Below are positions 923 through 35,769 of a DNA stretch of 40,917 nt, one piece after another. The DNA is taken from IMG/VR virus record IMGVR_UViG_2721755676_000008, positions 1-40,917 of that record. One strand, written 5' to 3'. This DNA is from a virus. Lineage: Duplodnaviria; Heunggongvirae; Uroviricota; Caudoviricetes. Under the pieces are notes generated by a model. It saw only the letters and a program-made list of their open reading frames with translations, ran no database searches and was not told the origin of the DNA. A program made the translations under genes and the position numbers. Position 1 is the stretch's first letter. Each line of letters begins with the position of its first letter.

Positions 923-3900
923 TATGCAAGCCTCACAATATAGTTAAATGCGATGTTTTTGACGGTGTTTTCCGCGTTACCAGCAGCGTTAACGGTGATG
1001 GTGTGTCCATGTGAACCAATCGCAACGGAGTGCGTATGAGCACCAATACCGACAGTATGTGCATGTGCGCCTGCGCTTGCAGCAGTGCCGGACAGCGAGT
1101 GGGTATGAGCACCATCTGATGATGTCTTCCCTGCATTACGAGTCTGGCCACTACCGCTTGTTGTGCTCATAATCCCCGCGCTTAGATTTGAAATCGCGGT
1201 ATAACCATTAGGGAAAATGCTCGTGTTCGTGCCACCAAATGCACCGGAACTCTTGTGTTGGTGCGCACCGGCACTATTTGCGGTCCCGCTAATACTATGG
1301 GTATGCGCCCCGGTGTTATTCGTGGATTTGGTTCCGTAATCAAACGACGATGTGGTTTTCGTCCCCAAATCCGTACTGGATGCGCTGGCGCTGTGGGTGT
1401 GCGATTTAATGCCGTCCTGTTCCTGAGATAATACGGCCCGACCACTGGCGGGCTTGCCCTTAATCGTCCAGCCACGCATATCAGGGATCACGCCTGACGG
1501 ATAAGCAACTGCAAGTTTCGGGTATGCAGATTTGTCAAAAGTCTGCCCCTGCATCAGGGCATAGCCAGACGGAACGGTATCTGATGGCCACGGGATTGGT
1601 GCACCGACTGGATAAAACTCTGCAGGAGGATGAGCCGAGGTGTAAAGCTGCGCCCACGGCGACCAGTTTGCGTCGGTCGTATCCCGTCGTGAACGAATAA
1701 ATGCCGGAGCATGAGCACCGCTTGTACCACTCCAGCCGATGAGTAACTCACCTTCGCCAACGGCTGTCATCCCTTTCAGGTGAATGATATTTCCATACGC
1801 TGTTGGATATCCGTTGTTATACACCTCGTATAACTCAAGACCTGCTGCCCCCTGCGTATTGTCTGTCAGCGCGGTTATCCGACCTTTTGAAGCCAGATTA
1901 ACTGATGATACTGCTGTTCCACCTGACGGTAACGCCCCGATCTCTGATGCCGTTGGCTTATTTCTGGAGTTATAGTCCCTTCGCCAGCCAGGTGAATAAT
2001 CTGTTCCGTGATTAATATAGGTAAACTGGGCGTTAGTTGTTCCACCACCAGTGGAGGTGGTCGGTGTGGTAATGCGGATCGTCATCGCTGACTTTATCCC
2101 CATTACTTCAATGACAGCTCCGGCGAGATGAATATTACCGCAGTCAGTATCAGTAATGATTTTATTATTGCCATAAGACCAGGAACCCTTGCACATCCAG
2201 TAGGGATGGTTAAATGCTCCCTGAGAATCCAGCCACTCGATAAACTGTGCAGTCGTCCAGTTTCCTGTTGTTGTGCTTACTGACCCACCGAAGGCACGGC
2301 AGGCACCAATATTTTTCGTAAAGGTGTCTTTGCCAGGGATATCCGCACCGTTCTGATCTTTCTGCAGACGTTTCTCAGCATTGTCATTGGCTGCTTTTAC
2401 TGCCTTTGGTGTCGCGGCAAGCGTTTCAGACGTGCTGTTGGTCGCGCTGCTTAGCTGGATTATCCCTTTCTGTGCTGTCGTTGCATCCTGTGCGGTGTAT
2501 TTCCCGTTAGCCAGGTCATACGCGGCCTTAACGGCTTTTGGTGTTGCCGCCAGTGACTCGGAAGTGCTGTTAGTCGCACTACTGAGCTGTACTATCCCCT
2601 TTTTCGTCGTGCTCGCATCCTCAAGCGCCACGGCGGATGCAATATCCTCTGCCCGTTTTGCTGCTGTCTCGGCGCGCGTTGCTGCGGATTCTGCCGTACT
2701 TTTGCTCTGTGCTGCCGCTGCCGCACTGCCAGCAGCCTCTGTCGCCTTCGTGGATGCCGTCGTGGCGCTGCCCCTCGCTGCTGACGCCTGTCTGGTCGCC
2801 TCATCTTTTGAAGCAGACGCCGATGATGCCGATGACGCCGCCGAACTGGCGGACGATGCGGCAGCCGTTTTTGAGGATTCTGCGCTGGTTTCCGACGCTT
2901 TCGCGTTCGTTTCGGATGTCTTCGCTGCGGAAGCAGACCTCGCTGCTGCGCTGGCCTGTTCAGTGGCTTCGCCAGCCTTCGTTGTGGCTGTTGAAGCGGA
3001 TGATGCGGCGCTTTCTGCCGATTTTCCGGCGGCGGTGGCACTGACTGCTGCCTCCTCTGCCTTAATGGACGCCTCACGGGCCGATGATGCAGCTGTTGTC
3101 TCAGAGTCTGCCGCAGCTGAGGCGCTCTGTTCCGCTGCCGTTTCAGAAGACTTAGCATTCGTCTCGGACGTTTTTGCCGCCTTCACGGAATTTCCTGCCG
3201 CCGTTGCCGAGGAGGCTGCACTGCTGGCGCTTGTGGAGGCGTTCGTTTCTGATGATTTTGCCGCCTCTTTGGAGGCCGCCGCATCCCGGGCTGAAGTGGC
3301 GGCTTCTGACGCTTTCGTCGTCGCAGTGGATGCAGAAGTGGCTGCTGATTGTTGTGACGCTGCGGCATTCGTTTCTGACGTTTTCGCCGCACCGGCACTG
3401 GTGGCCGCCGCGCTTTTTGAGGACTCTGCAGCGGCAGCACTTTTTGATGCTTCAGTGGCCTTTGTTGATGCCGTTCCTGCGCTGGAAGACGCCTCCTGAG
3501 CCGACGTCGCGGCCTGTCCGGCTGACGTGCTGGCTGCACGCGCTGAGCCTGCAGCATCAGTCGCATGGGTTGCCGCCTCACTGGCAGATGTGCCGGCATC
3601 ACTGGCTGACTTCTTCGCGGCTGCCGTGTTCTGTGCCACCGCGGACGCGTTACGCGCCACCTCTTCCACCATCAGTTCAAAACGGCGCAGAGCCTCCGGA
3701 CGGGCATCATCCTCCGTCATGGCACCGAGAAAATCATTCAGCGTACCGGGTCGGGAATCTTCATACACGGTGATGGTCCCGGCATGTGACGGCGGGAATC
3801 CTTCCACCAACAGAATAACGCTGTACTGACCGTACTCAACGTCCATGCTGTAACGCCCGGCTTCATCCGGATTTTCTGAGGCCAGCGTGTTCACCACCAC

Positions 3901-4002
3901 CGTGGTGCTGTTACGTTTTGCTTTCAGCTGGATTGTGCAGTTCTGTACCGGTTTTCCTGTGCCGTCTTTCAGTACACCTGAAATCTTTACTGCCATATTC
4001 AC
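922..4002 (-). CDS. stf: Side tail fibre protein (Stf-like), Ala/Ser-rich repetitive shaft and His-rich C-terminal receptor-binding region
   Basis: 1026-aa ORF; long low-complexity repeats (KTSETNA..., AAxSA); duplicated ~30-aa motif GI(V/I)[11 protein letters not shown](S/T)[11 protein letters not shown] typical of phage tail-fibre repeats; C-terminal GAHTHS / GAHAH His-rich repeats; sits between lom and tfa as in lambda. Confidence 0.85.
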
Positions 4003-4016
4003 CCCACAAAAAAGCC

Positions 4017-4044
4017 CGCCTGAACCGGCGGGCTGTCATAACAC
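4017..4044 (-). terminator. Rho-independent terminator downstream of lom
   Basis: Hairpin agcccgcc-tgaacc-ggcgggct preceded on the plus strand by A6, giving stem plus U-run on the minus strand just after the lom stop. Confidence 0.6.
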
Positions 4045-4060
4045 TGTGTTACCTGGCTAA

Positions 4061-4660
4061 TCAGAACTTATAACCGACACCCACGATGAAACCGTCAGTG
4101 CGCCAGTCGCCACTGCCGGAGCCTTCATAAGCAATATCAATGGCCACGGATTCGGTCGGGTTAAACTGCACGCCAGCTCCCCACGCCAGAGACGTGTTGC
4201 TGTGGCGACCGTCATCACTTCCGGTCAGCACGTCGTGCGTTTTCCCCTTGTTGTCAGTTACGCGGAGATAATCCCCGGAGAAAGTCGACACACGGCTGTA
4301 AGCCACACCCGCCATCGCATACGCGCTGAACCATTCATTCACGCGCACAGACGGCCCCGCCATTACGCTGAACCAGCGGTTACGAACGGAATCTTCATGC
4401 CAGCGGGTATCGCTGTAATGGGTCAGCTGGCGATTCTTGTCTCCTGCATAGCTGAATGACGTCACCAGCCCCAGCGTATCCGTAAACTCATAACGGTATT
4501 TCACGTTAATCCCGTTCAGATCATCACTGCCGGGAACGTTGGTCCGGGCATGAAGATACCCCGCGCTCAGCGTGGACTGATGTTCAGACGCCCATGCAGG
4601 CGCACCGGATACGGCCAGACAAATGGCTGCGGACAAAATGGCTGCACAAACTTTACGCAT
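4061..4660 (-). CDS. lom: Lom-like outer-membrane beta-barrel protein (Ail/Lom/PagC family)
   Basis: 199-aa ORF with N-terminal signal peptide (MRKVCAAILSAAICLAVSGAPAWA), alternating beta-strand pattern and C-terminal ...VGYKF; located directly after J as in lambda. Confidence 0.85.
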   Translation of the reverse strand: MRKVCAAILSAAICLAVSGAPAWASEHQSTLSAGYLHARTNVPGSDDLNGINVKYRYEFTDTLGLVTSFSYAGDKNRQLTHYSDTRWHEDSVRNRWFSVMAGPSVRVNEWFSAYAMAGVAYSRVSTFSGDYLRVTDNKGKTHDVLTGSDDGRHSNTSLAWGAGVQFNPTESVAIDIAYEGSGSGDWRTDGFIVGVGYKF

Positions 4661-4684
4661 AATTACCTCTCGCTTTTCTGCAAT

Positions 4685-4708
4685 AAAAAAGGCGTCATTC
4701 CTGACGCC
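4685..4708 (-). terminator. Rho-independent terminator downstream of J
   Basis: Hairpin ggcgtca-ttcc-tgacgcc preceded by A6 on the plus strand (U-run on the minus strand) 23 bp after the J stop. Confidence 0.6.
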
Positions 4709-4730
4709 ATTTATTGGGGTTATAAATATT

Positions 4731-7700
4731 TCAACGAATACTGATGCCTGAAGCCGCTTTTTTGGTCACAATCACCGTACAGTCGGTGATATTACCTGCC
4801 CGCTGATTGCCTTTATGGAAAACCTTAAACTCCAGAGTGACGCTTCCCCTGCCACTCGGCATATCAATAACCGCACTGTAGCTACCGGGAATGGCCCCTT
4901 TAGTTTCTCTGGATGCGATTAATACACCGTTTTTGCGAACTTCAAAACCATAACCCGTGTATCTTGTACCTCCCGGGTTATTACCACTTCCCGGATCGCT
5001 ATACGCTATTCCGTTAAAGATAATGGGCGGAATAATGATTTGACGGTCAAAGTTATGATCATCGCTGATGGTGACTGTAACCGTCCCGTTTGGTGTTTCC
5101 GTATTACCCCACGTACCAGCCTGTTTCGGGAATGATTTGGATACAGCTTTAACGAAGTCACCTCTGACCTGAGTCGCCTCCAGCATGCCCTTAATCGTAC
5201 AGTTTTCATTTACCGTGACATTGTTGAGCGTCCCGGCGTTCGCATTCACACTGCCACTGATATCCGCATTTTTAGCGGTCAGCTTTCCGTCCGGTGTCAG
5301 GGAAAATGCCGGCGGATTTCCACCGCTGGTAATGGTGGGAGCCGTCAGGCGTTTCAGGAACACGTCATTCATGAATATCTGATCACCCTGACCAACAAAC
5401 ATCGGTTTTGTGTTGCCATTTGCAGGATTAATCATCGCAATCCTGTCCGCCGCCAGCAGCACCTGACTCTGCATGCCGTCAGGGGTGTTCTCAATACCGG
5501 CACCGATACCCGCAATATAAAGGCGTCCGTCCTGCATCTGCTGCAGCTTCACTGCCCACATGCTGTTCAGGTTATTATTTGTATCAACCTGAACCTTCTG
5601 TATCTGCTGGATCGCTGCACTCTGGTCTTCCAGTTTCTTATTGACGGTCTGTGTTATTTCATTGCTGACATCCGTTATGGACGTCCTGATTTCAGTCAGG
5701 TCAGGCGCAAGCTGACCGTTATCAATCTGCGTCCACAGCTCCTGAGCCAGATGGGTTTTCCCTATCTCGCCTTTGAAAAAATCCAGATAGCCTGATGCAT
5801 CATCACTCGGCTGACCGACAGCCTCCACGAATGCCGATTTGCCAACGGTGTTCACACTGCGAACGTAAAAATAATAATCATGGCCCGGTTTGATATTGAT
5901 ACTGGCGGCTATCCAGTACAGTGCCGTACCAAGATAACGCGCGCTGGTTTCAACCTGCCTGATATCCGCAATCCGTTTTTCCGAGAACCAGAACTCAAAC
6001 TGTACCGTCGGGTCATAAACCGCAAGATGCGGCGTGGCGGTTATCTGAAAATAGCCCGGCGTCAGCTCAATCCGCGACGGCGCTGCCGGTGCGGCAATCC
6101 GGAACGATACCGACGCCGGATCGCCCTGCTGCCCCCAGGCATTTGCCGCCCGGACTGTCAGCCTGTAGTTTCCCAACGCCAGTTGCGTGAAGCGGTATGT
6201 GGTTTCCGTCGTCCGGGCCGTGCTGACCAGCCGCTCACTGCCGTCATCCGCTGCCACGGTCAGGCGAAGCATAAAGCTCACGCCCTTCACCACCTTCGGC
6301 GTGTCCCAGCGGGCCAGTACCTGATACTCCCCGCTGTCTGCGGTGACTTCGGCAGTCAGGTGCTGCACCGCTGGCGGCGTGACACCATTCACCGTGCCGC
6401 TCTGGTCGCCGTCAAAGTGCGCCCCGTTATCCACGATGGCTTCTTTTTCCGGTACATGCTGCACGGCAGTGATGGCATACGTGCCGTCATCGTTCTCACG
6501 GATACTCACACAGCGGAACAGGCGCTGACGCAACGTCGGCAACTTCAGCCCCCACACGCTGTATCCGGCAACGCCGTCAGGAACCCGGTTCACTTTCACC
6601 TTAAGTCCGTCGGTGACGGACTGAACCTCCACGCTGAACGGATTACCACTTCCGTCAACCAGGCTTATCAGCGTGGTACCGGAGGATGGCAGCGTGATTT
6701 CACGGTCGAGCGTCAGCGTCCGGGTCTGGCTGTTCACCGCCAGCACGCGACCACCGGTGCTGATACCGGCATAGTCATCATCGCAGATTTCAATGACATC
6801 GCCCGGTACATGGCGAAGCCCTTCTGCGCCCACGCTGAAGTCCACGGTCTGCGTCTCCAGCAGTTCCGTTTTAATCAGCCACAGCCCGGCGCGGTGTGCC
6901 TGCCCCCGGCTGGTACAGCCAAAGGCATCCATCTTCGTGACATTACGACCATAACGGGCAATGGCCTGCGTATCTTCAACAAGCTCTGTCGCCGTCTCCC
7001 AGCCGTTGTTCGGGTCAATCCAGTTCACCTCAACGGCATTATGGCGGTCCTTCAGGGCGCTGAAACTGTAGCGGAACGGCGCGCCATCATCCGGCATCAC
7101 CACATTACTGCGGTTATAGGTCCACACCTTATCTGATGGTCGGTCCTGCACGAACGTCAGCGTCTGCCCGTTCCATACCGGCATACAGCGCATCGCCGAG
7201 CAGAAATCACTGAGCACATCCCACGCCTTACGCTGTGTGGTCAGGTACGCATTACAGGTAATGCGCGGCTCCGTGCCGCCAAAGCCGTCCGGCACCGACT
7301 GGTCGCAGTACTGGCCGATGACATACAGCGCCCATTTATCCACATCCGCCGCACCAAGACGTTTCCCCATGCCGTAGCGCGGATGGGTCAGCATATCCCA
7401 CAGACACCAGGCCATGTTGTTGCTATATGCTGGTTTTAACGTTCCGTCCCAGATACCGCTGTATTGTCGCGTCTGCGGGTTATAGTTCGACGGCACCTGC
7501 AGAATGCGCCCGCGAAGATGATAATTACGACTCACCTGCTGGCTACCGAACTGCTCCGAGTCCACCTGTACGCCGACCAGTGCCGTGTTCGGGTAGCACT
7601 GTTTCACATCGATGATTTCGGTGTATGACGACCAGAGCGTTTTGTTCTGCAGCTGGTCTGTGGTGCTGTCCGGCGTCATCCTGCGCATCCGGATATTAAA

Positions 7701-9582: not shown

Positions 9583-10280
9583 TTACTGCGAAAGTTTGTT
9601 AATGGAAAGGAAGCCGCCAAAGTTGCCGACGTTATTGCGAAACTTACAGCCGCTCAGGCATTTGCTGCATTTATCCTTCGTGATATCGGACGTCGGCTGA
9701 TCATATTCATCCGCGACCGCCGGACCGTGATAACCGCACTCGTCACCGCGATAGGTCCAGGTGCAGGTGTTGGCCAGCATGATACGTCCCGGAAAAACGG
9801 CACCGTCCGTTTCCGTCGGCGTGGACAGTACAAAAGAGGCACTCACCGCGCTCAGTTCGCTGCACTGCTCGATGCGCCAGCGGCTAATCACCTCCTGCTC
9901 CGGATCGGCGTCACTGTTTCCGTTGACGAAGTTCACCGCATCCAGAAAACGGGCGTAAACCTTACGCCGGACCACCGTTCCGCCGACCAGACTCTGCAGG
10001 TCTTCCGCCATCCCGGTGACCATGCCGTGCAGGTTAGAAACCGTCAGTGTCGGACGGGCAGCACTGCCCTTGCCATTCAGTTCAAATCCCGTCCCCTGAA
10101 TGGGGTATGCCTGATACTGCCGCCCCTGCCAGGTAACCGGCTCACCTTTTCGTTCTGCTCATTACAGAAAAAATAACGTTCACCACCGACCTCTGTCAGA
10201 TCGATTTCCCAGAGCACCACCTGGGCTGACTGAGTGAGGCGTGTCGTCTCATGATGTGTTTCCTGTGGAATATCCTGCAT
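9583..10280 (-). pseudogene. L: Minor tail protein L split by a -1 frameshift
   Basis: The N-terminal L-like fragment (ORF 10077-10280, MQDIPQETH...FFCNEQNEK) and the C-terminal L-like fragment (ORF 9583-10023, MVTGMAEDLQSLVGG...) are in different frames; the frame switch maps to the T4 run at 10147-10150 (A4 on the coding strand); translated in the other frame the sequence continues GEPVTWQGRQYQ... as expected for gpL. Confidence 0.7.
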
Positions 10281-10289
10281 CAGAGCCTC

Positions 10290-10619
10290 CTATGCCACGA
10301 CCTGTTCAAAATCTGCCGTTATGGTTATCCACAGCGCCCCCACGCTTGCCGACCATTTACGACAAACCACCCTGATCGGCTTCCAGTCATAAGGTGGCGT
10401 CCACTGAAATGCGCGGACGCCACCGTGCCGTTCCAGAAAGGCTTTTAAAGATGGGTGTTCACATTTACGAACACGTATCGTCACGCTGTAAATCGACAAC
10501 TGGTTATTCAGTCCCGCCGCACGACGCTGTTCATAACCATCGCCCAGCTTCACTGTCACCACTTTCGGCTCTGATACCACATTCATATCCGGGCGCACTT
10601 TCCAGTGAAACGTCTCCAT
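10290..10619 (-). CDS. M: Minor tail protein M
   Basis: 109-aa ORF between H and L; size, position and sequence as lambda gpM. Confidence 0.85.
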   Translation of the reverse strand: METFHWKVRPDMNVVSEPKVVTVKLGDGYEQRRAAGLNNQLSIYSVTIRVRKCEHPSLKAFLERHGGVRAFQWTPPYDWKPIRVVCRKWSASVGALWITITADFEQVVA

Positions 10620-13600
10620 TACCGATATGCTCCACTTAACCGACCACCATCACGGGCCTGCTGTTGCATAAAGTCCGCTGCCGCTTTTTTCCCAAGGTCA
10701 TAAACCACCTTCAGGGCAGCCGGACCTATCTGCCCGTTCGTGCCATCGTTATTGATCTCAATGTTGTACTGCGGGGCAAACATCGCCATACCTGAACCAC
10801 CAATATCCGCCACAACCCCCAGCTTACCGTCAGCACCACGACGCAGTGGCAGAATGGCTTCAGGCCCAGCTTCCCCCATCACACCTGCACCTTTTGCAAA
10901 AGCAAAAAACGTCGGACGGTTAACCACCGTGCCACTGTAGCGACTCAAATCAGCAGACTGATAAACACCACCATCAGCATTGGGCGTCACACTGGCAGTT
11001 GCTGCACTCCCCCAGCCAAACGCCGAACCAATCCCCTTAACTGCCTGCATCATGGACATCTGAGCCATGATTTTTGCCAGATCAGAAAGGAGCGAGGCGG
11101 TAAAAGATTTGAAGTTCAGTTTTCCGGTGGTACAGAATGTTGCCAGTGCATTACCTGCACTATTAAATGCCGCTGTAAGCATCTGCTCCGCAGTGCCTGC
11201 CGCATTATCCGCATCTGCCGTGAAATTCTGAAACGCCCGCATGGCACCGTTTTTCCAGTTACCCTGAGCAATTTCAAGCTGTTGCCAGTAACGGCGATTC
11301 TCATTCAGTTGCCTGTTCAGGCTCTCCGTCAGCGCCTGCTCGGCCTTTCTGTAGTCATCCGTGTTATATGTCCCTTTCTGCTCACTATCCCGCCTCAACT
11401 GCTCCAGCTGTTGCTGGTATTTCTGGCGAAGACTCAGTTGTACCTGATATCGCTGCCGCTGCTGATCACCCATACCCACCGTGGCGATATCCAGGTCATG
11501 TTGCTGATGCTGAGAGCGCTCTTCTTCAGCCAGTTGACTGGTCAGCTGAATTGTTTTTTTCTTCAGATCGTTGAGTGCCGTCTGTTTCTGAAGCTCCTGC
11601 TGTTTTACATCCAACAGCGTCAGTGCCTGAATCAGTTCATCTTTACGGGCCAGCACACTCTTTTCATCTGCCGTCAGTTTTTTCCCGTCCAGATCGCTGA
11701 TGCGCTGCTGCAGAGCCAGAAGCTGTTTATGCGCTTCTGTCATCCTGTCAGTGGCAATGCCAGCTGACTGTCTTGCAGCAGCAATCTGTCCTTCCACCTG
11801 TGCCTGTTGCTGACTGTACTGCAGCAATAACCGGGTGGCCTCATCATTACGGGTTTCGCGTGTTTTTTTCTTACCGGATGCCAGGGCTTTCTCGTAACGT
11901 TCATTTTCACGTTGTATCGCCGCATCCCTGACAGCCTGGTCGGCGTACTGCATGGCATTAATACGCGCAATTTCACGCTGATGTCGTGCTGCTTCCGTTT
12001 CATTCATCCGGTTCAGTGCAGCATTTTCAGCATTACGTCGTTTCTGTTGCTCCTGATAATTCCGCTCTGCCTGCTCTTTTGCATCCTGCAAATCCTTCTG
12101 GCGTTTTTTCTCCTGAAGATCGTTAAGACGCTGCTGATCGTATTCAACCTGAGAAGATGATGCCGTCCAGGGGAGTCTTTTCGCCCGCGACACTTTCTCC
12201 TGTAAAGTGGCAATCTGTTCATCCAGCGAGTCTTCACGACCAATATTCATGGCCGCATCCCAGAAACGACTCCATAAATCAGACAGATACTTCAGCGTAC
12301 TGCCAAGCGCATTGAGGTTATTATCAATATCCGCAGTACGCCGACCGGTTTCCTCTGCCAGTGCAGACATGGCTATCCGTGCAGCATCACTGGACCGTCC
12401 CTGCTCCCCAAGGACGCGTATCTGCTCAAGCTGAGTGGCAGTAAGAAAATGCAGCTCATTGTCCAGAGCCTTCGCGGCATTTACAGGATCATCCTTCAGC
12501 CGCTTAAACTGATTTATGGTATCGCTGACCGACTGGCCAACCGATCGCTCCATCTGTGCGGCAGCTCTCGCCACCATACCGATATCGTTTCCACGAAATG
12601 CACCACTACCCACCACCTGAGCCAGCGCACCGGCTGCAGCATGTTGCGTGATACCATTCCCGGAAATAGCACGACTGAGCGTCCACAGCTGCCCGGCAGT
12701 GACTCCGGCATAATGCCCCGTCAGCGACAGCTGGCGGTTAAATTCTTCCCCCTCCTTCTGACCGTCATACCAGGCTTTACCCAGACCATAGACAGCCGCG
12801 GCAATACCGCCAATAACCCCGCCAAGCATCATGCCTTTCGGTGACATCAGTGTGTCTATCCACCCGGCACGGTTAGCCAGCGTTATCCCGGATCCCCTCA
12901 GCGCACCTAAATTGCCGCGGGCCAGTTCACCTATCAGAACGCCTATCTCCTGGCGGGCCGCTGCACTTTTCAGACCCAGCGAATGCGTGGCTTTTCCTGC
13001 CTGCTCCATTTTGCGGATATACACTTCTGCAGCACTGCTTACCCCCAGTTGGGCAGCCTTAGCACGAAGCAACTCAGAAGAAGAAAGATTCTGGCGGGTT
13101 GCCTGCTCTTTAAGCTGACGGATAAACGCCACTTTCTGTCGGGTAGCCTCTTCCTCAGCCTGTGTAAGAACACGGGTTTTCGCAGTAACCTCAGAAATCA
13201 GCGCCAGATAATCCTGCTGACCAATCCCGCCACTGTTTCTGGCCTGTCGGATCTGCTGCTGAATACGCTGTAATTCCTGCAGCCCCGCACTGGCCTGTTT
13301 CACACTGTCAATCTGACGATAAAACGCAGCAGCCGCTTTATCCTGAGCCTCCGCCAGAGCCATGGCCTGCGCCTGTTCCTCGCGCATTTTCTGGCTCAGC
13401 GCCTCCATGCGCTGGCGGGTTTTCTCCACCTCGCGGGCCATGCGTTCATGAGCCTGTGCGTTCTTCTCCACCGTCTGCGCATGGACGGATGCGGCTGTTG
13501 CAGCCGAAGAAGCCGCCTGCGTTGTCTGCCGGGCGGCCTGAGTCTGACGCTCCATAAAACGCTGCATACGGGCAGAAGACCGTTCTGCATCGCTGGCTGC

Positions 13601-30140: not shown

Positions 30141-30530
30141 TCAGGCGGCTGCACCCGCCGGTTTCTCATACTTACTGATAGTGATCTCGACCTTCCCTTT
30201 CGGGATAACCGGTCCCCACTCCACCAGCATTCTTTTCACCTGTCTGTCGTCTTCCCACACACCCGCGTGGGTCAGGGCGTCAAACAGCGCCTTGTTATAG
30301 TTGTCCAGATCGCGGATCCGGTTATCCGGAGGAAACAACACGATCTCCACTGAAGCAGGTGCCGACGTTGGTTTCGGCAGACGACGTAACTGCTCAACTA
30401 TTGCTGCGCACGCCGCGCTCTGGAATTTTCGCCCCGCCGCGCTTATCAGGCTCTTACCAGCAAACGCCCCTTTGTTGGGGTGTCGCCAGTACGTGTTCAC
30501 ACTGGGCGGGAAAGGAAGGATCAACTTCAT
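30141..30530 (-). CDS. rusA: Holliday junction resolvase RusA
   Basis: 129-aa ORF; MKLILPFPPSVNTYWRH... and conserved acidic residues characteristic of RusA; nin-region position. Confidence 0.85.
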   Translation of the reverse strand: MKLILPFPPSVNTYWRHPNKGAFAGKSLISAAGRKFQSAACAAIVEQLRRLPKPTSAPASVEIVLFPPDNRIRDLDNYNKALFDALTHAGVWEDDRQVKRMLVEWGPVIPKGKVEITISKYEKPAGAAA

Positions 30531-30853
30531 ACTTTCAAGCCCCTCTCATGTAACCAGTGGGCTGCACGCAACCTGGCGTTCTCCTCACCGGCAAGCAGTG
30601 CGCGGATGATACCGACCGCTTCGCTGTCGTCGTCCTTCACTGCGGTATGAAGCGTTATCCCCCGGGCCACGCCACGCTTTATCGTGATGACGCCTTTTTT
30701 CTCCAGTGCGCGAAGATGCTCCACCGCTGCATTCACCGAACGGTATCCCAGCATGGTTGCCACCTCCTGATTGGTTGGCGGGAAGCCACGTTCTTTCTGA
30801 TAAGAAATCAGCATATCCAGCACCTGCTGCTGGCATTGAGTTAACGTCGTCAT
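30527..30853 (-). CDS. LexA-type DNA-binding-domain protein lacking the S24 peptidase domain
   Basis: 108-aa ORF; N-terminal ~70 aa follow the LexA winged-helix pattern (QQQVLDMLISYQKERGFPPTNQEVATMLGYRSVNAAVEHLRALEKKGVITIKRGVARGITL); no Ser-Lys autocleavage domain. Confidence 0.55.
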   Translation of the reverse strand: MTTLTQCQQQVLDMLISYQKERGFPPTNQEVATMLGYRSVNAAVEHLRALEKKGVITIKRGVARGITLHTAVKDDDSEAVGIIRALLAGEENARLRAAHWLHERGLKV

Positions 30854-31536
30854 GCCGCCATCTCCCTGACCAGTTTTTCTGCCTGCTGGCGAACCTGCGC
30901 CAGAAACGCCTCACCACATGCCTCAAGTTCATCGCGCCCGATGTAGCTGATTGCCGGTCCCTTCCAGGTCTTGTCGAAAACAGCAATAGCACCAGCGAAG
31001 AAAGCGCCTGTCGGCACCTGCTTCTCGTCCTTCGGGATAAACCAGGCAGGCAGTTCAAAACCAATACGCCCGCGAATAAAAGCAATATGATCTGCATCTT
31101 CCGGCCACCACACTTCGCTGGTGGCAGCTTTGATCAGGAAAACATAGCGTCCGCCCTTATCACGCATGGCACTGGCATGCTTCATGATGTAACGCATGCC
31201 GGTGATGTATTGCCCTTCATGCTGACTGGCGCGGCTGTATGGGGGATTACCAAAGGCAGCCCCTTTAAGCTCCGCAAGACGTTCTGACCAGTCATGCGCC
31301 AGCGCGTTGTCTTCCGCCGTGTAATACGCGGCACATTTGGCGTTATCACCGTCAGTGAACAGATCCAGAACAAACGGACCAAACAGGGTGTTAATTCCCC
31401 AGAAAATGTTGTCCGGCGTGCGCCACTGATCGCCCACTTCCTTCAGTTCATGGGCTGGTTTGTTCCGCAGTTCCACCAGCGCCTGGCAATATTTATTACT
31501 CATTAAGCCCCCACGTAATTCCCTGACAGATACCAC
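30850..31536 (-). CDS. Phage-type DNA N6-adenine methyltransferase (Dam-like)
   Basis: 228-aa ORF with NPPY motif (FGNPPYS); nin-region location typical of lambdoid Dam-like methylases. Confidence 0.75.
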   Translation of the reverse strand: MVSVRELRGGLMSNKYCQALVELRNKPAHELKEVGDQWRTPDNIFWGINTLFGPFVLDLFTDGDNAKCAAYYTAEDNALAHDWSERLAELKGAAFGNPPYSRASQHEGQYITGMRYIMKHASAMRDKGGRYVFLIKAATSEVWWPEDADHIAFIRGRIGFELPAWFIPKDEKQVPTGAFFAGAIAVFDKTWKGPAISYIGRDELEACGEAFLAQVRQQAEKLVREMAA

Positions 31537-31997
31537 TCTTCACCCGATACAGCGCGCTTGCTGCTTTTCCGTAAACACCGCTCACGACGCGCAAGAAAAT
31601 TGTTTCGCTCTTGCTGGGAGTGGCTTTCACGGAATGCCGCCATCCACACCGTTGCAGCACGACGGTATAAGCCCCTGGACTCCAGTCCTTCCGCCTGGCG
31701 GGTCAGGCACAAAATCACCCGGGGATCGTTAGTGCCGACATAGAAATTGCGCACAGGTCTGGATTCACGAACTGGTTGCGGTTCCGGCTCCTGCGGTATC
31801 TCAGTCAGCCGCGGGAAATGTCTGCGTGTATCCCCTTCACAACGGTGAGCCACACGCCCACTCTGACGTAACTTGCTTGCTGACTGCAGAACGCGCTGCC
31901 GTGAGTAACCTGCAAAAGCATCCGCAATGTCTCCGGAAGTACACCCCGGATGGGCTTCAATGAATTTCTGAACTTCATTCAAAAGACTCATGCTCAC
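31503..31997 (-). CDS. PerC-family-like transcriptional regulator with N-terminal winged-helix extension
   Basis: 164-aa ORF; C-terminal LESRGLYRRAATVWMAAF matches the PerC/Pch signature as recalled; N-terminal HTH-like region. Confidence 0.45.
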   Translation of the reverse strand: MSMSLLNEVQKFIEAHPGCTSGDIADAFAGYSRQRVLQSASKLRQSGRVAHRCEGDTRRHFPRLTEIPQEPEPQPVRESRPVRNFYVGTNDPRVILCLTRQAEGLESRGLYRRAATVWMAAFRESHSQQERNNFLARRERCLRKSSKRAVSGEEWYLSGNYVGA

Positions 31998-32812
31998 CCC
32001 CTGAATCCTGCCGGGATCTGGCTGTAGTCCACGTTGTCGTAACTGGCTTTGAAGTACGGGTCCTCGCGTCTGGCTGCAGATACCGCAGGAACTTCCCAGG
32101 GTTCTTCGAAATGACGATCCGGGCCAAAGAACGTGACAGCCTGTTTCACAAATTGTGTGCCGCTGTTACCCATCGCAGATACCCAGCCCGCGTAGCGTTT
32201 CACACCTTCCAGCATGGTTTCGGGTTTTACCCCCTCATTCAAACGGGCTTTCCAGGCTTTGAAGGCTGCAGATTTTGAATTGCCACCAGCACGTTTGGGG
32301 TATGCCAGCCATGCCTGCTCAAACTCCGGAGAGTATTCCGGTCGGTTTGAACGAACTCGCACAGACTCATCAGCAGATGCACCAACAGCTATTGGTTCAT
32401 TGACTGGTTCTTTGACTGGTTCAAAAGAGTGACTGGTTCTGGGTGAATCTCCTGCACTACCCCCTGGTGCAACTCCTGCACTACCTGGTGAATTTGCTGC
32501 ACCAGATAGTGAATTATTTGCACTACCCCCTAGTGAATCTCCTGCACCATCAAGATGAAGGAGATAGATATTACTTGAGTTACCTTTTTCACCTTTCCGG
32601 GTGACTTTTTTTACCAGCCCGGACTCACAAAGGGCCGCAATATGATTCATCACAGAACGTTTGCTAATCTCGCACTGGTCAGCAATATGCTGGTAGCTGG
32701 GCCAGCACTCACCCTGATCGCTGGCATTATCAGCCAGCTTGATCAGAACCAGTTTTCGCAATGGATTACCCACTCGAATTTTCATCGCTTTAACCATCAG
32801 CTCCATACTCAT
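31994..32812 (-). CDS. Replication initiation protein (N-terminal HTH, Gly/Ser-rich linker, C-terminal domain); O-like
   Basis: 272-aa ORF; N-terminal HTH (SYQHIADQCEISKRSVMNHIAAL); DNA iterons inside the linker-coding region, as for lambda O/ori. Confidence 0.65.
   Translation of the reverse strand: MSMELMVKAMKIRVGNPLRKLVLIKLADNASDQGECWPSYQHIADQCEISKRSVMNHIAALCESGLVKKVTRKGEKGNSSNIYLLHLDGAGDSLGGSANNSLSGAANSPGSAGVAPGGSAGDSPRTSHSFEPVKEPVNEPIAVGASADESVRVRSNRPEYSPEFEQAWLAYPKRAGGNSKSAAFKAWKARLNEGVKPETMLEGVKRYAGWVSAMGNSGTQFVKQAVTFFGPDRHFEEPWEVPAVSAARREDPYFKASYDNVDYSQIPAGFRG
32395..32550. repeat. Iteron array (candidate origin of replication) inside the replication gene
   Basis: Three copies of tgactggttc (32401, 32414, 32431) then about five copies of a ~21-bp unit (c)tcctgcactacc(ccc)tggtg (from about 32449 to 32548), followed by an AT-richer tract. 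Confidence 0.5.
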
Positions 32813-33033
32813 GCTGCACCTCCGAGATGCTTCATGTTTTTTCCGGAGCGAAAGGTTATAAGCGGCATACTGACGCGGTAATTACGGCCCAGCGGTTCAC
32901 AAATCACCTTCTGACATTCACGGTCCACCAGGCTAACACGTAGAACATGCCCTGCAGGTGTGGTGTACCACTGACCCGGACGAGGACAACGGAAAGTCTG
33001 ATTGGTAAACCGTTTGAAAATATTCCGGATCAT
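32809..33033 (-). CDS. Hypothetical small protein, translationally coupled between the Rha-like gene and the replication gene
   Basis: 74-aa ORF with start and stop overlapping both neighbours. Confidence 0.35.
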   Translation of the reverse strand: MIRNIFKRFTNQTFRCPRPGQWYTTPAGHVLRVSLVDRECQKVICEPLGRNYRVSMPLITFRSGKNMKHLGGAA

Positions 33034-34178
33034 TTGCGCCCCCTTACCTCTGAAGGGTTCAGCGACAAATTTATGAGGCAGGCCAGTGCCGAAGCATCAT
33101 TAATATAGTCATACAAGCTAACAGCCAGCGGAGATTCGGCTTTTGCCAACATAGGATAAAGCTGCTGCAGCCAGACCTGATGAATTGATGAAATGTAGGA
33201 ATAGAGAACGCTGGCGTTATGTGCAACGTCGCTCAGTACAGAGGGATTTGAAAGCTGTTTCTCCATCTGGTTAAAGGCATTGATGTATGCCTCTTTGAAC
33301 TGGGCAGCACGTTTACCCGTGAAACCCATAGCAAGAAACGCAAAGCCGTCGCGGGTTATTTGATAGCAAGGTAGTTTGCGGCCTGTGCAATCGGTGTAAT
33401 CACTCACCGAAAAATTGCGGGAAGTGAATGATGCAGAGCATTCAAGCGTGCGGATCTTTTTCAGTACATCGTCATGACGTTTGGAGAAGAAGTTGGCAAC
33501 AGCCAGGGATGAAGTAACAGCCTGACCATCAACGATGGCAATTTCAGGTTGAGTGAGGGTTGGGATCGTAGCCATGATGGCAGCCTCCGATAACAGTGAA
33601 TTACCTTCACCACCGGAAACGCCAATTTCGCTGGTGGTGAACTGAACGGGGTTGGCGTAACCGGCGTTATCGGAAACCGGCGCACCTTTCGGTGCCCCCG
33701 TCCAGCCCACCATAATTTGGGTGTGCACAGACGCAGACGATAAAAAAGACGCTGGCGCGTCATATATCGCCGATAACATTTCCAGGACGCCAATCCCGGC
33801 ACCCGCTTTATAAGGTGCCTGAACAGTGTAACGTCCCGGAATGGCAGAATCAATGTGCTGGTGGTCCTTCACACTCAACAAAATCACGCCTGAATTTCCA
33901 CAAAGGACTAAAGCACTCATGCGGGTAGTCTTTGCGAAGATAGATAACGCGCTGTGTTTCTGGCTCCCAACGAATAACATGGACATAAAGCCCTCTTCCG
34001 TCACGAAACCAGCGGTTAAGTTCCTGCACAACTCGCCCCCCACAGTCAGGTAAAGTTCTCTGTGGTTACTTACAGCCAGGTGATCTGGTAATCTGCATTC
34101 ATGCCGTAACAACAGGTGTTCAGCGACACTGACCACCAGCTGTTGCGACAAACGGTTATTTGCCGTTAAACTGTTCAT
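33030..34178 (-). CDS. Rha-family phage regulatory protein (Rha domain in the C-terminal half; N-terminal ~200 aa of unknown function)
   Basis: 382-aa ORF; Rha-like core around PEIAIVDGQAVTSSLAVANFFSKRHDDVLKKIRTLE; internal ATG at 33575 preceded by GGAGG could be an alternative start; ORF start overlaps the stop of the upstream gene. Confidence 0.55.
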   Translation of the reverse strand: MNSLTANNRLSQQLVVSVAEHLLLRHECRLPDHLAVSNHRELYLTVGGELCRNLTAGFVTEEGFMSMLFVGSQKHSALSIFAKTTRMSALVLCGNSGVILLSVKDHQHIDSAIPGRYTVQAPYKAGAGIGVLEMLSAIYDAPASFLSSASVHTQIMVGWTGAPKGAPVSDNAGYANPVQFTTSEIGVSGGEGNSLLSEAAIMATIPTLTQPEIAIVDGQAVTSSLAVANFFSKRHDDVLKKIRTLECSASFTSRNFSVSDYTDCTGRKLPCYQITRDGFAFLAMGFTGKRAAQFKEAYINAFNQMEKQLSNPSVLSDVAHNASVLYSYISSIHQVWLQQLYPMLAKAESPLAVSLYDYINDASALACLINLSLNPSEVRGRK

Positions 34179-34726
34179 GCGTTAGTTTCTCCACAGACAC
34201 AAAACGCCACGACGCCCGGAGCTGCACACTCGCGGGCGTCACTCTTTTCTGGAGCGCAGAAGATTTTGTAGACCAGTGCTGCATGCTCCTGGAGCTTCGA
34301 AATTGACAGATACAACTCATCATTAATTGCTGTCTGCTCGTGTGGCTCCACGACCCCATCTTCGATTGCCGAACGAATCTGCTTTGAGTAATTCCCGATC
34401 TGTTCGATGACTTCCAGCAGGCGCTGGTTTATATCGGCGTTCTCTACTTCCTCAATTTCAGGAAGCGATACGAACACCCCACCAGCAGATTGTGCGACAG
34501 CATCCGCAATGTAGTGAGTGCCAGCCGCGCGCTGTAAAACCATTGCCCATCCCAGCGGGAAAATCTGATCGCCATCTGCACGAAGGCGGTTGAATAAAGC
34601 GTTCTCTGTTACATCCAGCCAGTTAGCAGCTTCAGCGTAACCCCCAGGCAATGCCGCGATAGTTTTTCTGACAGCTTTCACGTACCACTCAGGTTGTTTT
34701 TCCACTTTCCAATGATGCTTACCCAC
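34175..34726 (-). CDS. CII-like early regulator (in the cII position, directly downstream of cro)
   Basis: 183-aa ORF overlapping the cro-like stop; assigned mainly by position. Confidence 0.4.
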   Translation of the reverse strand: MGKHHWKVEKQPEWYVKAVRKTIAALPGGYAEAANWLDVTENALFNRLRADGDQIFPLGWAMVLQRAAGTHYIADAVAQSAGGVFVSLPEIEEVENADINQRLLEVIEQIGNYSKQIRSAIEDGVVEPHEQTAINDELYLSISKLQEHAALVYKIFCAPEKSDARECAAPGVVAFCVCGETNA

Positions 34727-34979
34727 GGCTTACCTCCTGTTCCTGTGGTTTAAACCCATTCTGGTTTTGGCTAGATTGAAAACGTGCCGGATAAAGAATC
34801 TGCATTTCGCTGATTTCACCCTTAAAAAAATTGGCCAGACGTTCTGCAAGATCGATAGATGGAATTTGTTCCAGTCTTTCAATACGACTCAGCGTCGCTG
34901 GATTGACCTGAACGCCCGCAGCAACATGCTGCAAAGTAAATCCGTGCGCCTTACGCACATTCCGTAATGGTGATTGCAT
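34719..34979 (-). CDS. cro: Cro-like HTH repressor
   Basis: 86-aa ORF divergent from cI; HTH HGFTLQHVAAGVQVNPATLSRIE. Confidence 0.7.
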   Translation of the reverse strand: MQSPLRNVRKAHGFTLQHVAAGVQVNPATLSRIERLEQIPSIDLAERLANFFKGEISEMQILYPARFQSSQNQNGFKPQEQEVSRG

Positions 34980-35076: not shown

Positions 35077-35769
35077 ATGAACATAGGAAATCGAGTCAGA
35101 CAACTTCGCCAGGCGAAGAACATGAAAATCGCCGATCTCGCTGAAGCAATAGGAGTGGATGCGGCGAATATCTCGCGCCTCGAAACAGGTAAGCAGAAAC
35201 AATTCACTGAACAAGCCCTGAGTAATATTGCCAGGAGCTTAGGTGTTGATATTGCTGATCTCTTTACCTCAGACCTCAAAAGTAATACTGTATGTAAAAA
35301 CAGTATTAGTGAGGATGTTGCGCAGGTGAAGGATGTATTCCGTATTGAAATGCTGGATGTCAGTGCCAGTGCGGGAAATGGCCTTATCCAGGGCGGTGAT
35401 GTCATTGATGTGATTCATGCCATTGAATACAGAACTGATAATGCTGTATCGATGTTTGGTGGACGACCAGCAAATCACATTAAAGTTATCAACGTTCGTG
35501 GGGACAGTATGTGTCCAACCATTGAGCCAGGAGATCTCATCTTCGTTGATATCAGTATCAATCAGTTTGATGGGGATGGTATATATGTATTTGGTTTTGA
35601 TGATAAAATTTACGTCAAACGACTGCAAATGATACCTGATAAACTGCTGGTAATTTCTGATAATCAGATTTACCGCGAATGGGGAATTACCAGCGAAAAC
35701 GAACACCGGTTTATGGTCTTTGGAAAGGTCTTAATCAGTCAGTCACAAACCCTTAAGCGACACAATTAA
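35077..35769 (+). CDS. cI: CI-type prophage repressor (HTH plus S24 LexA-like peptidase domain)
   Basis: 230-aa ORF; N-terminal HTH (IADLAEAIGVDAANISRLETGK); C-terminal S24 peptidase motifs (VRGDSMCPTIEPGDLIFVD, catalytic Lys in FGKV). Confidence 0.85.
   Translation: MNIGNRVRQLRQAKNMKIADLAEAIGVDAANISRLETGKQKQFTEQALSNIARSLGVDIADLFTSDLKSNTVCKNSISEDVAQVKDVFRIEMLDVSASAGNGLIQGGDVIDVIHAIEYRTDNAVSMFGGRPANHIKVINVRGDSMCPTIEPGDLIFVDISINQFDGDGIYVFGFDDKIYVKRLQMIPDKLLVISDNQIYREWGITSENEHRFMVFGKVLISQSQTLKRHN

Follow-up and report, generated by a model that had tools for sequence, protein, structure and literature searches.

The DNA considered here (the window) is a stretch of 40,917 nucleotides and represents a lambda-like prophage, in which a cI-like repressor gene of the S24 type (35077–35769, plus strand) faces a long operon on the minus strand. 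This early lytic, pR-type operon spans positions 27549–34979, and its genes abut or overlap. The first half consists of a cro-like gene, a CII-like gene (Phage_CP76), an Ash/Rha gene, an open reading frame of 74 aa and a putative replication gene of the HTH_36/DnaD_N-like type. The second half continues with the PerC-like, Dam, LexA-like, RusA, KilA-N and DUF968 genes and ends with the Q antiterminator. The LexA-like open reading frame is located at 30527–30853 on the minus strand and, according to the listing of open reading frames, starts with ATG and encodes 108 aa. Upstream of it lies the gene of a phage Dam (N6-adenine) methyltransferase (30850–31536, minus; PF05869, E = 1e-45), and downstream that of a RusA Holliday-junction resolvase (30141–30530, minus), which is the neighbour in nearly every family locus examined. 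The gene is joined to both of them by ATGA overlaps, the first between the Dam stop and the LexA-like start codon, the second between the LexA-like stop and the RusA start codon. A search with PADLOC gave no sign of a defence-system role and returned only a marginal CARF-HTH match. The same early operon also carries a PerC-family (YfdN-like) regulator at 31503–31997 (minus) and a 382-aa Ash/Rha fusion at 33030–34178 (minus). Prophage regulators of the PerC type are known to influence the expression of virulence genes in pathogenic E. coli.

The product of the LexA-like gene is, on the evidence of its sequence, a protease-less paralogue of enterobacterial LexA, in which residues 1–68 correspond to the LexA winged helix. 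In Pfam, residues 1–65 align with the complete PF01726 profile (LexA_DNA_bind, positions 1–65 of 65; E = 2.9e-19) and score 69 bits, the cutoff being 23.7 bits, while the same search of the 108-aa protein finds no match to Peptidase_S24 (PF00717). The NCBIfam equivalog model of lexA, TIGR00498, is aligned over positions 1–91 of its 203 with a score of 70.5, below the cutoff of 110.95; for this score and for want of an S24 domain, the protein does not count as LexA proper. A phmmer search of the PDB sequences returns nine matches, all of them LexA repressors, the best being 1lea (E = 6.5e-16). Residues 1–68 of E. coli LexA can be laid over the protein without a gap at about 50% identity, and the LexA N-terminal domain (PDB 1lea, 3jso) is the nearest relative by sequence as well as by structure.

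The structural comparison leads to the same assignment. An AlphaFold2 monomer model, built from a family alignment of 19 sequences and reaching a mean pLDDT of 83, places helices at residues 6–22, 28–35 and 40–52 and strands at 56–58 and 66–68, which together form the winged helix. The best 12 matches of this model in the PDB, obtained with Foldseek, are all LexA (rmsd 1.0–2.9 Å, mostly at about 50% identity); the best seven LexA chains superimpose with an rmsd of 1.0–1.3 Å over 67–69 columns at about 50% identity. Generic winged-helix regulators are ranked only after LexA, with E > 0.01. The fold is specifically that of LexA and not a generic winged helix, the alternative to which the first-pass annotation had left room. 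That annotation had described a LexA N-terminal winged-helix pattern encoded without the S24 peptidase domain, and both parts of the description are borne out, the first by Pfam, by the phmmer search of the PDB and by AlphaFold2 with Foldseek, the second by the lack of a Peptidase_S24 match and by the end of the protein at residue 108, which is 40 residues beyond the winged-helix domain. The protease domain is truly absent and has not been lost by a frameshift, because full-length homologues of 102–135 aa span the Enterobacterales. As a result, the catalytic pair Ser119/Lys156 is missing, and so is the C-terminal part with which LexA engages RecA*.

The earlier description is right for the domain itself and leaves out a conserved tail of two helices, with which the protein is more than a bare DNA-binding domain. 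In the AlphaFold2 model, residues 69–74 form a linker of low confidence, followed by helices at 75–88 and 93–103, which are specific to the family. This tail of roughly 35 residues stands where LexA has its hinge and the S24 domain for dimerisation and autocleavage. A helix-turn-helix pattern is common to the tails of the full-length relatives; among the close ones, A97 and L101 do not vary, and A93, L86 and L87 hardly do. The conserved amphipathic helical pair predicted by the model plausibly mediates dimerisation.

The tail also contains the pair A88–G89, which HMMER aligns with the scissile bond A84–G85 of LexA in an alignment that runs through LexA residue 86 ('LLAGE' vs 'VAAGE'). The protein could on this basis be cut in trans, with the protease of host LexA, CI or a UmuD-type protein, together with RecA*, removing the tail and so inactivating the protein, which would make it SOS-sensitive. 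However, close relatives do not keep the Ala-Gly pair (LLANEE, LLVGEE), and no AG is present in members of 40–50% identity. In addition, A88–G89 closes a helix in the AlphaFold2 model, whereas the cleavage site of LexA lies in a loop. Intermolecular cleavage of LexA is inefficient. Trans-cleavage, which is very improbable, was rejected since the pair is not conserved, and we read A88–G89 as the probable vestige of a truncated lexA and not as a working cleavage site.

A vestige of this kind and the truncated look of the protein could also be taken to mean that a captured lexA gene is decaying and has lost its function, but this explanation is hardly tenable. The LexA-like open reading frame is a genuine gene and evolves under purifying selection, the dN/dS being 0.13 for the window gene against a Salmonella homologue and 0.11 for the Salmonella homologue against that of Citrobacter. 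Its length and its tail are kept at 40% identity in several genera, it is tightly coupled in translation to its neighbours, and its prevalence is high. By megablast, 2232 of 5426 complete E. coli genomes (41%) carry the gene, which is labelled 'LexA family transcriptional regulator/protein' in them. It also occurs in Stx2a and Stx2c phages and in mEp460, 1720a-02, SfV (as orf42, 'unknown'), SfII, SfIV, cdtI and mEp390.

The protein belongs to PHROG 362 ('transcriptional repressor'), which it matches at full length (E = 1.6e-59; residues 1–108 vs profile positions 1–106 of 106) and with which it shares the place upstream of RusA, DUF968 and Q in lambda-like phages. A phmmer search of 1.84 billion representative sequences retrieves full-length relatives of 102–135 aa down to about 40% identity. 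Profile searching of genome contigs with the sub-family alignment gave mostly host lexA, and the only useful loci from it were L011 and L012. Several database proteins (P0133, P0134, P0148, P0151, P0152 and others) show two matched stretches, that is, two LexA DNA-binding domains in tandem, and these may be single-chain pseudo-dimers.

The DNA contacts of helix 3 of E. coli LexA are made by Ser39, Asn41, Ala42, Glu44 and Glu45 (PMC3091678). Four of these five residues are kept in the window protein (S39, N41, A42 and E45), as is the wing R64-G65-I66; the differences from LexA are Val in place of E44 and Asn in place of R28. The recognition helix is identical to that of host LexA at 9 of 14 positions, which is above the average of the domain. 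Over 51 distinct family sequences, S39, N41, K53, R64, G65 and I66 are invariant, H46 is found in 50 and A42 in 47. Position 44 is never Glu in the same set, and position 45 is Glu in 18 sequences and Leu in 29, the latter forming a Klebsiella-type branch. Because the contact residues and the wing are retained, recognition of the SOS-box type is plausible and can reasonably be proposed for the window protein, but not for the family at large. The exchange of E45 for Leu in the large Klebsiella-type branch means that specificity is not uniform in the family, and it may have drifted away from the SOS box.

The position of the gene bears on when such a protein would be present in the cell. When the sequence directly upstream of the LexA-like gene was scanned with promoter consensus patterns, nothing promoter-like appeared on the minus strand. 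Since the gene lies inside the cro-to-Q operon, is coupled to its neighbours by ATGA overlaps and has no promoter-like site of its own, expression is expected after induction or infection rather than from a silent prophage. It is most simply read as an accessory delayed-early lytic gene, translationally coupled to Dam and RusA, whose product is probably made post-induction or post-infection and not in the repressed lysogen. The suggestion of the first-pass annotation that the regulator acts on the host from the prophage is unlikely for the same reasons.

The order of the LexA-like gene, RusA (with one small open reading frame between them in some loci), an optional ANT/KilA gene, DUF968 and Q is kept at 40–50% protein identity, and this synteny persists across differing immunity, replication and Q modules. 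Such coupling to RusA, seen from 40 to 100% identity, would suit a DNA-binding accessory of the RusA and DUF968/HNH recombination module, which would serve junction resolution or replication restart and have no role in transcription. In line with that possibility, among 80 viral contigs collected by way of RusA, 73 match the LexA-like gene pattern. Of the remaining seven, two are sequence variants, one has no intact copy and four (L267, L314, L327 and L337) lack the gene; in these four it is missing precisely, and the Dam stop directly overlaps the RusA start. The contigs retrieved in this manner carry only near-identical RusA alleles and are unsuitable as a control set without the gene. Because Dam abuts RusA in four natural variants, the LexA-like gene is dispensable; it is an accessory cassette, and the exchange takes place at the borders of genes. 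RusA can therefore stand without it in at least 4 of 80 loci, and conversely a Klebsiella phage has the gene with no annotated RusA adjoining. Moreover, the conserved residues are the base readers of LexA and do not form a structure-specific DNA-binding surface. Taken with these points, a purely recombinational role is improbable.

Two exact ACTGT-N8-ACAGT sites are present in the window, compared with 0.01 expected, and no shuffled sequence held two. The first, TACTGTATGTAAAAACAGTA (35286–35305), is a near-consensus SOS box (17/20) which covers the linker codons N-T-V-C-K-N-S of the S24 cI-like gene. Between the window cI and the 71%-identical allele of locus L002, this box is an island of identity in diverged surroundings, and the upstream boxes checked in related viral contigs (8/8) all fall within the same cI type. 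This region also shows an arrangement like that of sulA (TTTACC-17 nt-TACTGT), which could form an internal SOS-gated promoter reading toward the pL side. The second box, CACTGTTTATTTTTACAGTG (26238–26257), occupies codons 3–9 of an N6_N4 DNA methyltransferase gene (25213–26265, minus) downstream of Q and recurs in L001, L010 and about 27 of 80 related viral contigs. Its placement suggests that the methyltransferase is an SOS-gated accessory gene. This methyltransferase holds the position that the stx genes occupy in Stx phages, and in L010 it is followed by a Cas1 gene and an AcrVA2-like gene (9794–11390).

Both boxes are almost certainly genuine sites of host LexA, and they are also candidate cis targets of the LexA-like protein. 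The notion of a LexA-like DNA binder on SOS boxes, advanced in the first-pass annotation, gains plausibility from the retained contact residues and from these boxes in the prophage itself. In the window phage, no SOS box adjoins the LexA-like gene or lies upstream of it, and in 34 of 80 close relatives the 10 kb around it contain no strong SOS box; both observations weigh against the binding of SOS boxes.

A sister branch of the family (P0137/P0191-like, 102–135 aa) presents a closer association. In about 65 of 80 of its IMG/VR loci, a near-consensus box is located 0.4–1.2 kb upstream of the gene, and in about 72 of 80 a box is found within 3 kb, several of the exceptions being too short upstream to tell. 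The three loci that were read (L007, L010 and L011) share the order of a terminator, a -35 element (TTGCAA or TTGCAT), a 17-nt spacer, a -10 element, the box, a PHROG-1813 open reading frame and the LexA-like gene, with the box at or just past the -10 element. In a Klebsiella phage, dinI precedes the same small PHROG-1813 open reading frame. Further downstream in L094–L173, L007, L010, L011 and L091, the LexA-like gene is followed by PHROG-1212, RusA and/or DUF968, and Q. In L007, an RNase A-like toxin gene and a CdiI-like immunity gene (3863–5232) are located just upstream of the SOS-box promoter.

The layout of the sister branch, with its terminator, promoter, SOS box, optional dinI and small open reading frame downstream of the replication genes, is that of the LexA-gated induction unit of the Gifsy phages, which comprises dinI, an antirepressor and irsA (PMC3121763). 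The PHROG-1813 open reading frame (75–96 aa) holds the place of the Gifsy antirepressor, and the repressor of L007 is short and without an S24 domain, as in Gifsy phages, whereas the window phage has an S24 cI. Gifsy irsA was considered as a member of the LexA-like family and rejected, being a DUF1367/NinB-like gene; Gifsy-2 has this gene at the corresponding position and no LexA domain. Because Gifsy-2 carries an SOS-gated unit without a LexA-like gene, the association of the sister branch with the box may be positional rather than functional.

The only studied phage analogue of such a design, and the closest one, is gp6 of the Bacillus tectivirus GIL01, a truncated LexA homologue which activates the late promoter P3 through a palindrome of its own (PMC6182141). 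Like the window protein, gp6 is a phage-encoded LexA DNA-binding domain without the C-terminal domain, and it is expressed early (PMC6182141). It differs in having 66 aa, no tail, an origin in Bacillus LexA and another recognition helix. Since BLASTP gives no alignment between the two proteins at E <= 100, gp6 can serve only as a precedent, and by their sequences each arose by a truncation of its own, from a different host LexA lineage and in an unrelated phage. By analogy with gp6, the LexA domain of the window protein could have been retargeted to a phage operator other than the SOS box, where it would activate or time a phage promoter, such as that of Q, of the late genes or of accessory genes. 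The residues at positions 28 and 44, which are unlike those of LexA, and the variability of position 45 in the family are consistent with such retargeting, and so is the location of the gene shortly upstream of Q in every locus examined. The recognition helix is nevertheless nearer to that of host LexA, as counted above, and phages exist that precisely lack the gene, which therefore is no essential late activator. As a weak negative, a search for a private operator with a non-canonical half-site spacing or another palindrome found none enriched in the family loci; N8 is the only enriched spacing of ACTGT and ACAGT half-sites in both locus sets. A gp6-type transcription factor with a site of its own is therefore rather unlikely, though it deserves more weight than the recombinational role.

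The reading we favour, whose chances appear about even, is that of a RecA-insensitive regulator which binds SOS boxes and is made after induction. The identity of the domain, the lack of the protease, the purifying selection, the place in the operon, the synteny and the presence of SOS boxes are observed; what we infer is the DNA specificity, the oligomeric state, when the gene is expressed and whether it represses or activates. According to this reading, the conserved recognition helix and wing would read the CTGT-type half-sites of SOS boxes, and pairing on DNA would be achieved via the helical tail and/or contacts between the DNA-binding domains. As the catalytic dyad and the RecA*-engaging domain are missing, RecA* would be incapable of inactivating the protein, which could act as a RecA-insensitive occupant of LexA operators just when host LexA is destroyed. 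Control would in this way be re-imposed, or less probably redirected, on LexA-gated promoters. The targets would be the SOS genes of the host, both boxes of the window and the LexA-gated induction units of co-resident prophages; in the sister branch, its own operon is possibly a target as well. A point against the favoured reading is that the invariant neighbour of the gene is RusA and not a promoter.

The free N-terminal domain of LexA keeps some SOS-box binding and repression, and its removal by ClpXP is needed for SOS activation (PMC10584840). A stable stand-alone LexA domain is expected to be active because this free domain retains binding (PMC10584840), and a dimerising helical tail should strengthen such activity. 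The window protein differs from the cleaved fragment of LexA in being the product of a stand-alone gene and in having the two-helix tail, V44 and N28. The C-termini differ too, the fragment ending with ...VAA and the LexA-like protein with ...GLKV. The ...VAA end reportedly marks the cleaved LexA fragment for ClpXP. Because of its ...GLKV end, the LexA-like protein may be stable against removal of the ClpXP type.

Repression is more likely than activation as the putative effect, because the box is at or just after the -10 element in the three loci read. The more specific proposal, in which the protein is a phage-encoded off-switch of the SOS response, a RecA-proof surrogate of LexA that re-silences LexA-gated promoters after cleavage of host LexA, is tentative and on balance doubtful. 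A comparable state is that of the lexA3 Ind- mutant, by analogy with which SOS boxes would be expected to stay occupied despite RecA*; lexA3 prevents Gifsy induction (PMC3121763). The two differ in that the lexA3 product is a full-length dimer present before damage, whereas the LexA-like protein has no dimerisation domain of this kind and is predicted only post-induction.

As an object, the gene is not new, since it is annotated at large scale already; the earlier description of the feature was correct, and what it lacks is the standing of a fresh discovery. Some of the existing labels are wrong, as the protein has no protease domain, namely 'SOS-response repressor and protease LexA' or 'RecA-mediated autopeptidases' in the records of 1720a-02, 2H10 and cdtI. 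A survey of Stx phages, which offers no functional work on the family, lists it as pham 237 (pfam01726; PMC8136144), and a 'bully phage' preprint on 1720a-02, a carrier of the gene, ascribes the interference to Cro. In a full-text literature search, no functional or experimental study of the enterobacterial protease-less LexA family was found. New here are the placement in the lytic operon, the conserved helical tail, the tight synteny with RusA together with the precise natural deletions, the retention of the LexA contact residues and the connection with canonical SOS boxes, which are found in the phage itself and, in the sister branch, upstream of the gene.

If SOS boxes are occupied by the protein, a very common prophage gene would alter the SOS response of E. 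coli and Shigella after induction, with a possible reach into mutagenesis, antibiotic tolerance, induction of Shiga-toxin phages and competition between co-resident prophages. Should the off-switch proposal hold, rival prophages would have their LexA-gated antirepressor or bacteriocin units shut down together with the SOS functions of the host, feedback would be exerted on the phage's own SOS-gated operon in the Gifsy-like branch, and about 40% of E. coli genomes would carry such a switch, Stx2 phages being among its bearers. If the protein instead uses a site of its own, it would join GIL01 gp6 as a second, independent example of a LexA DNA-binding domain serving as the private regulator of a phage.
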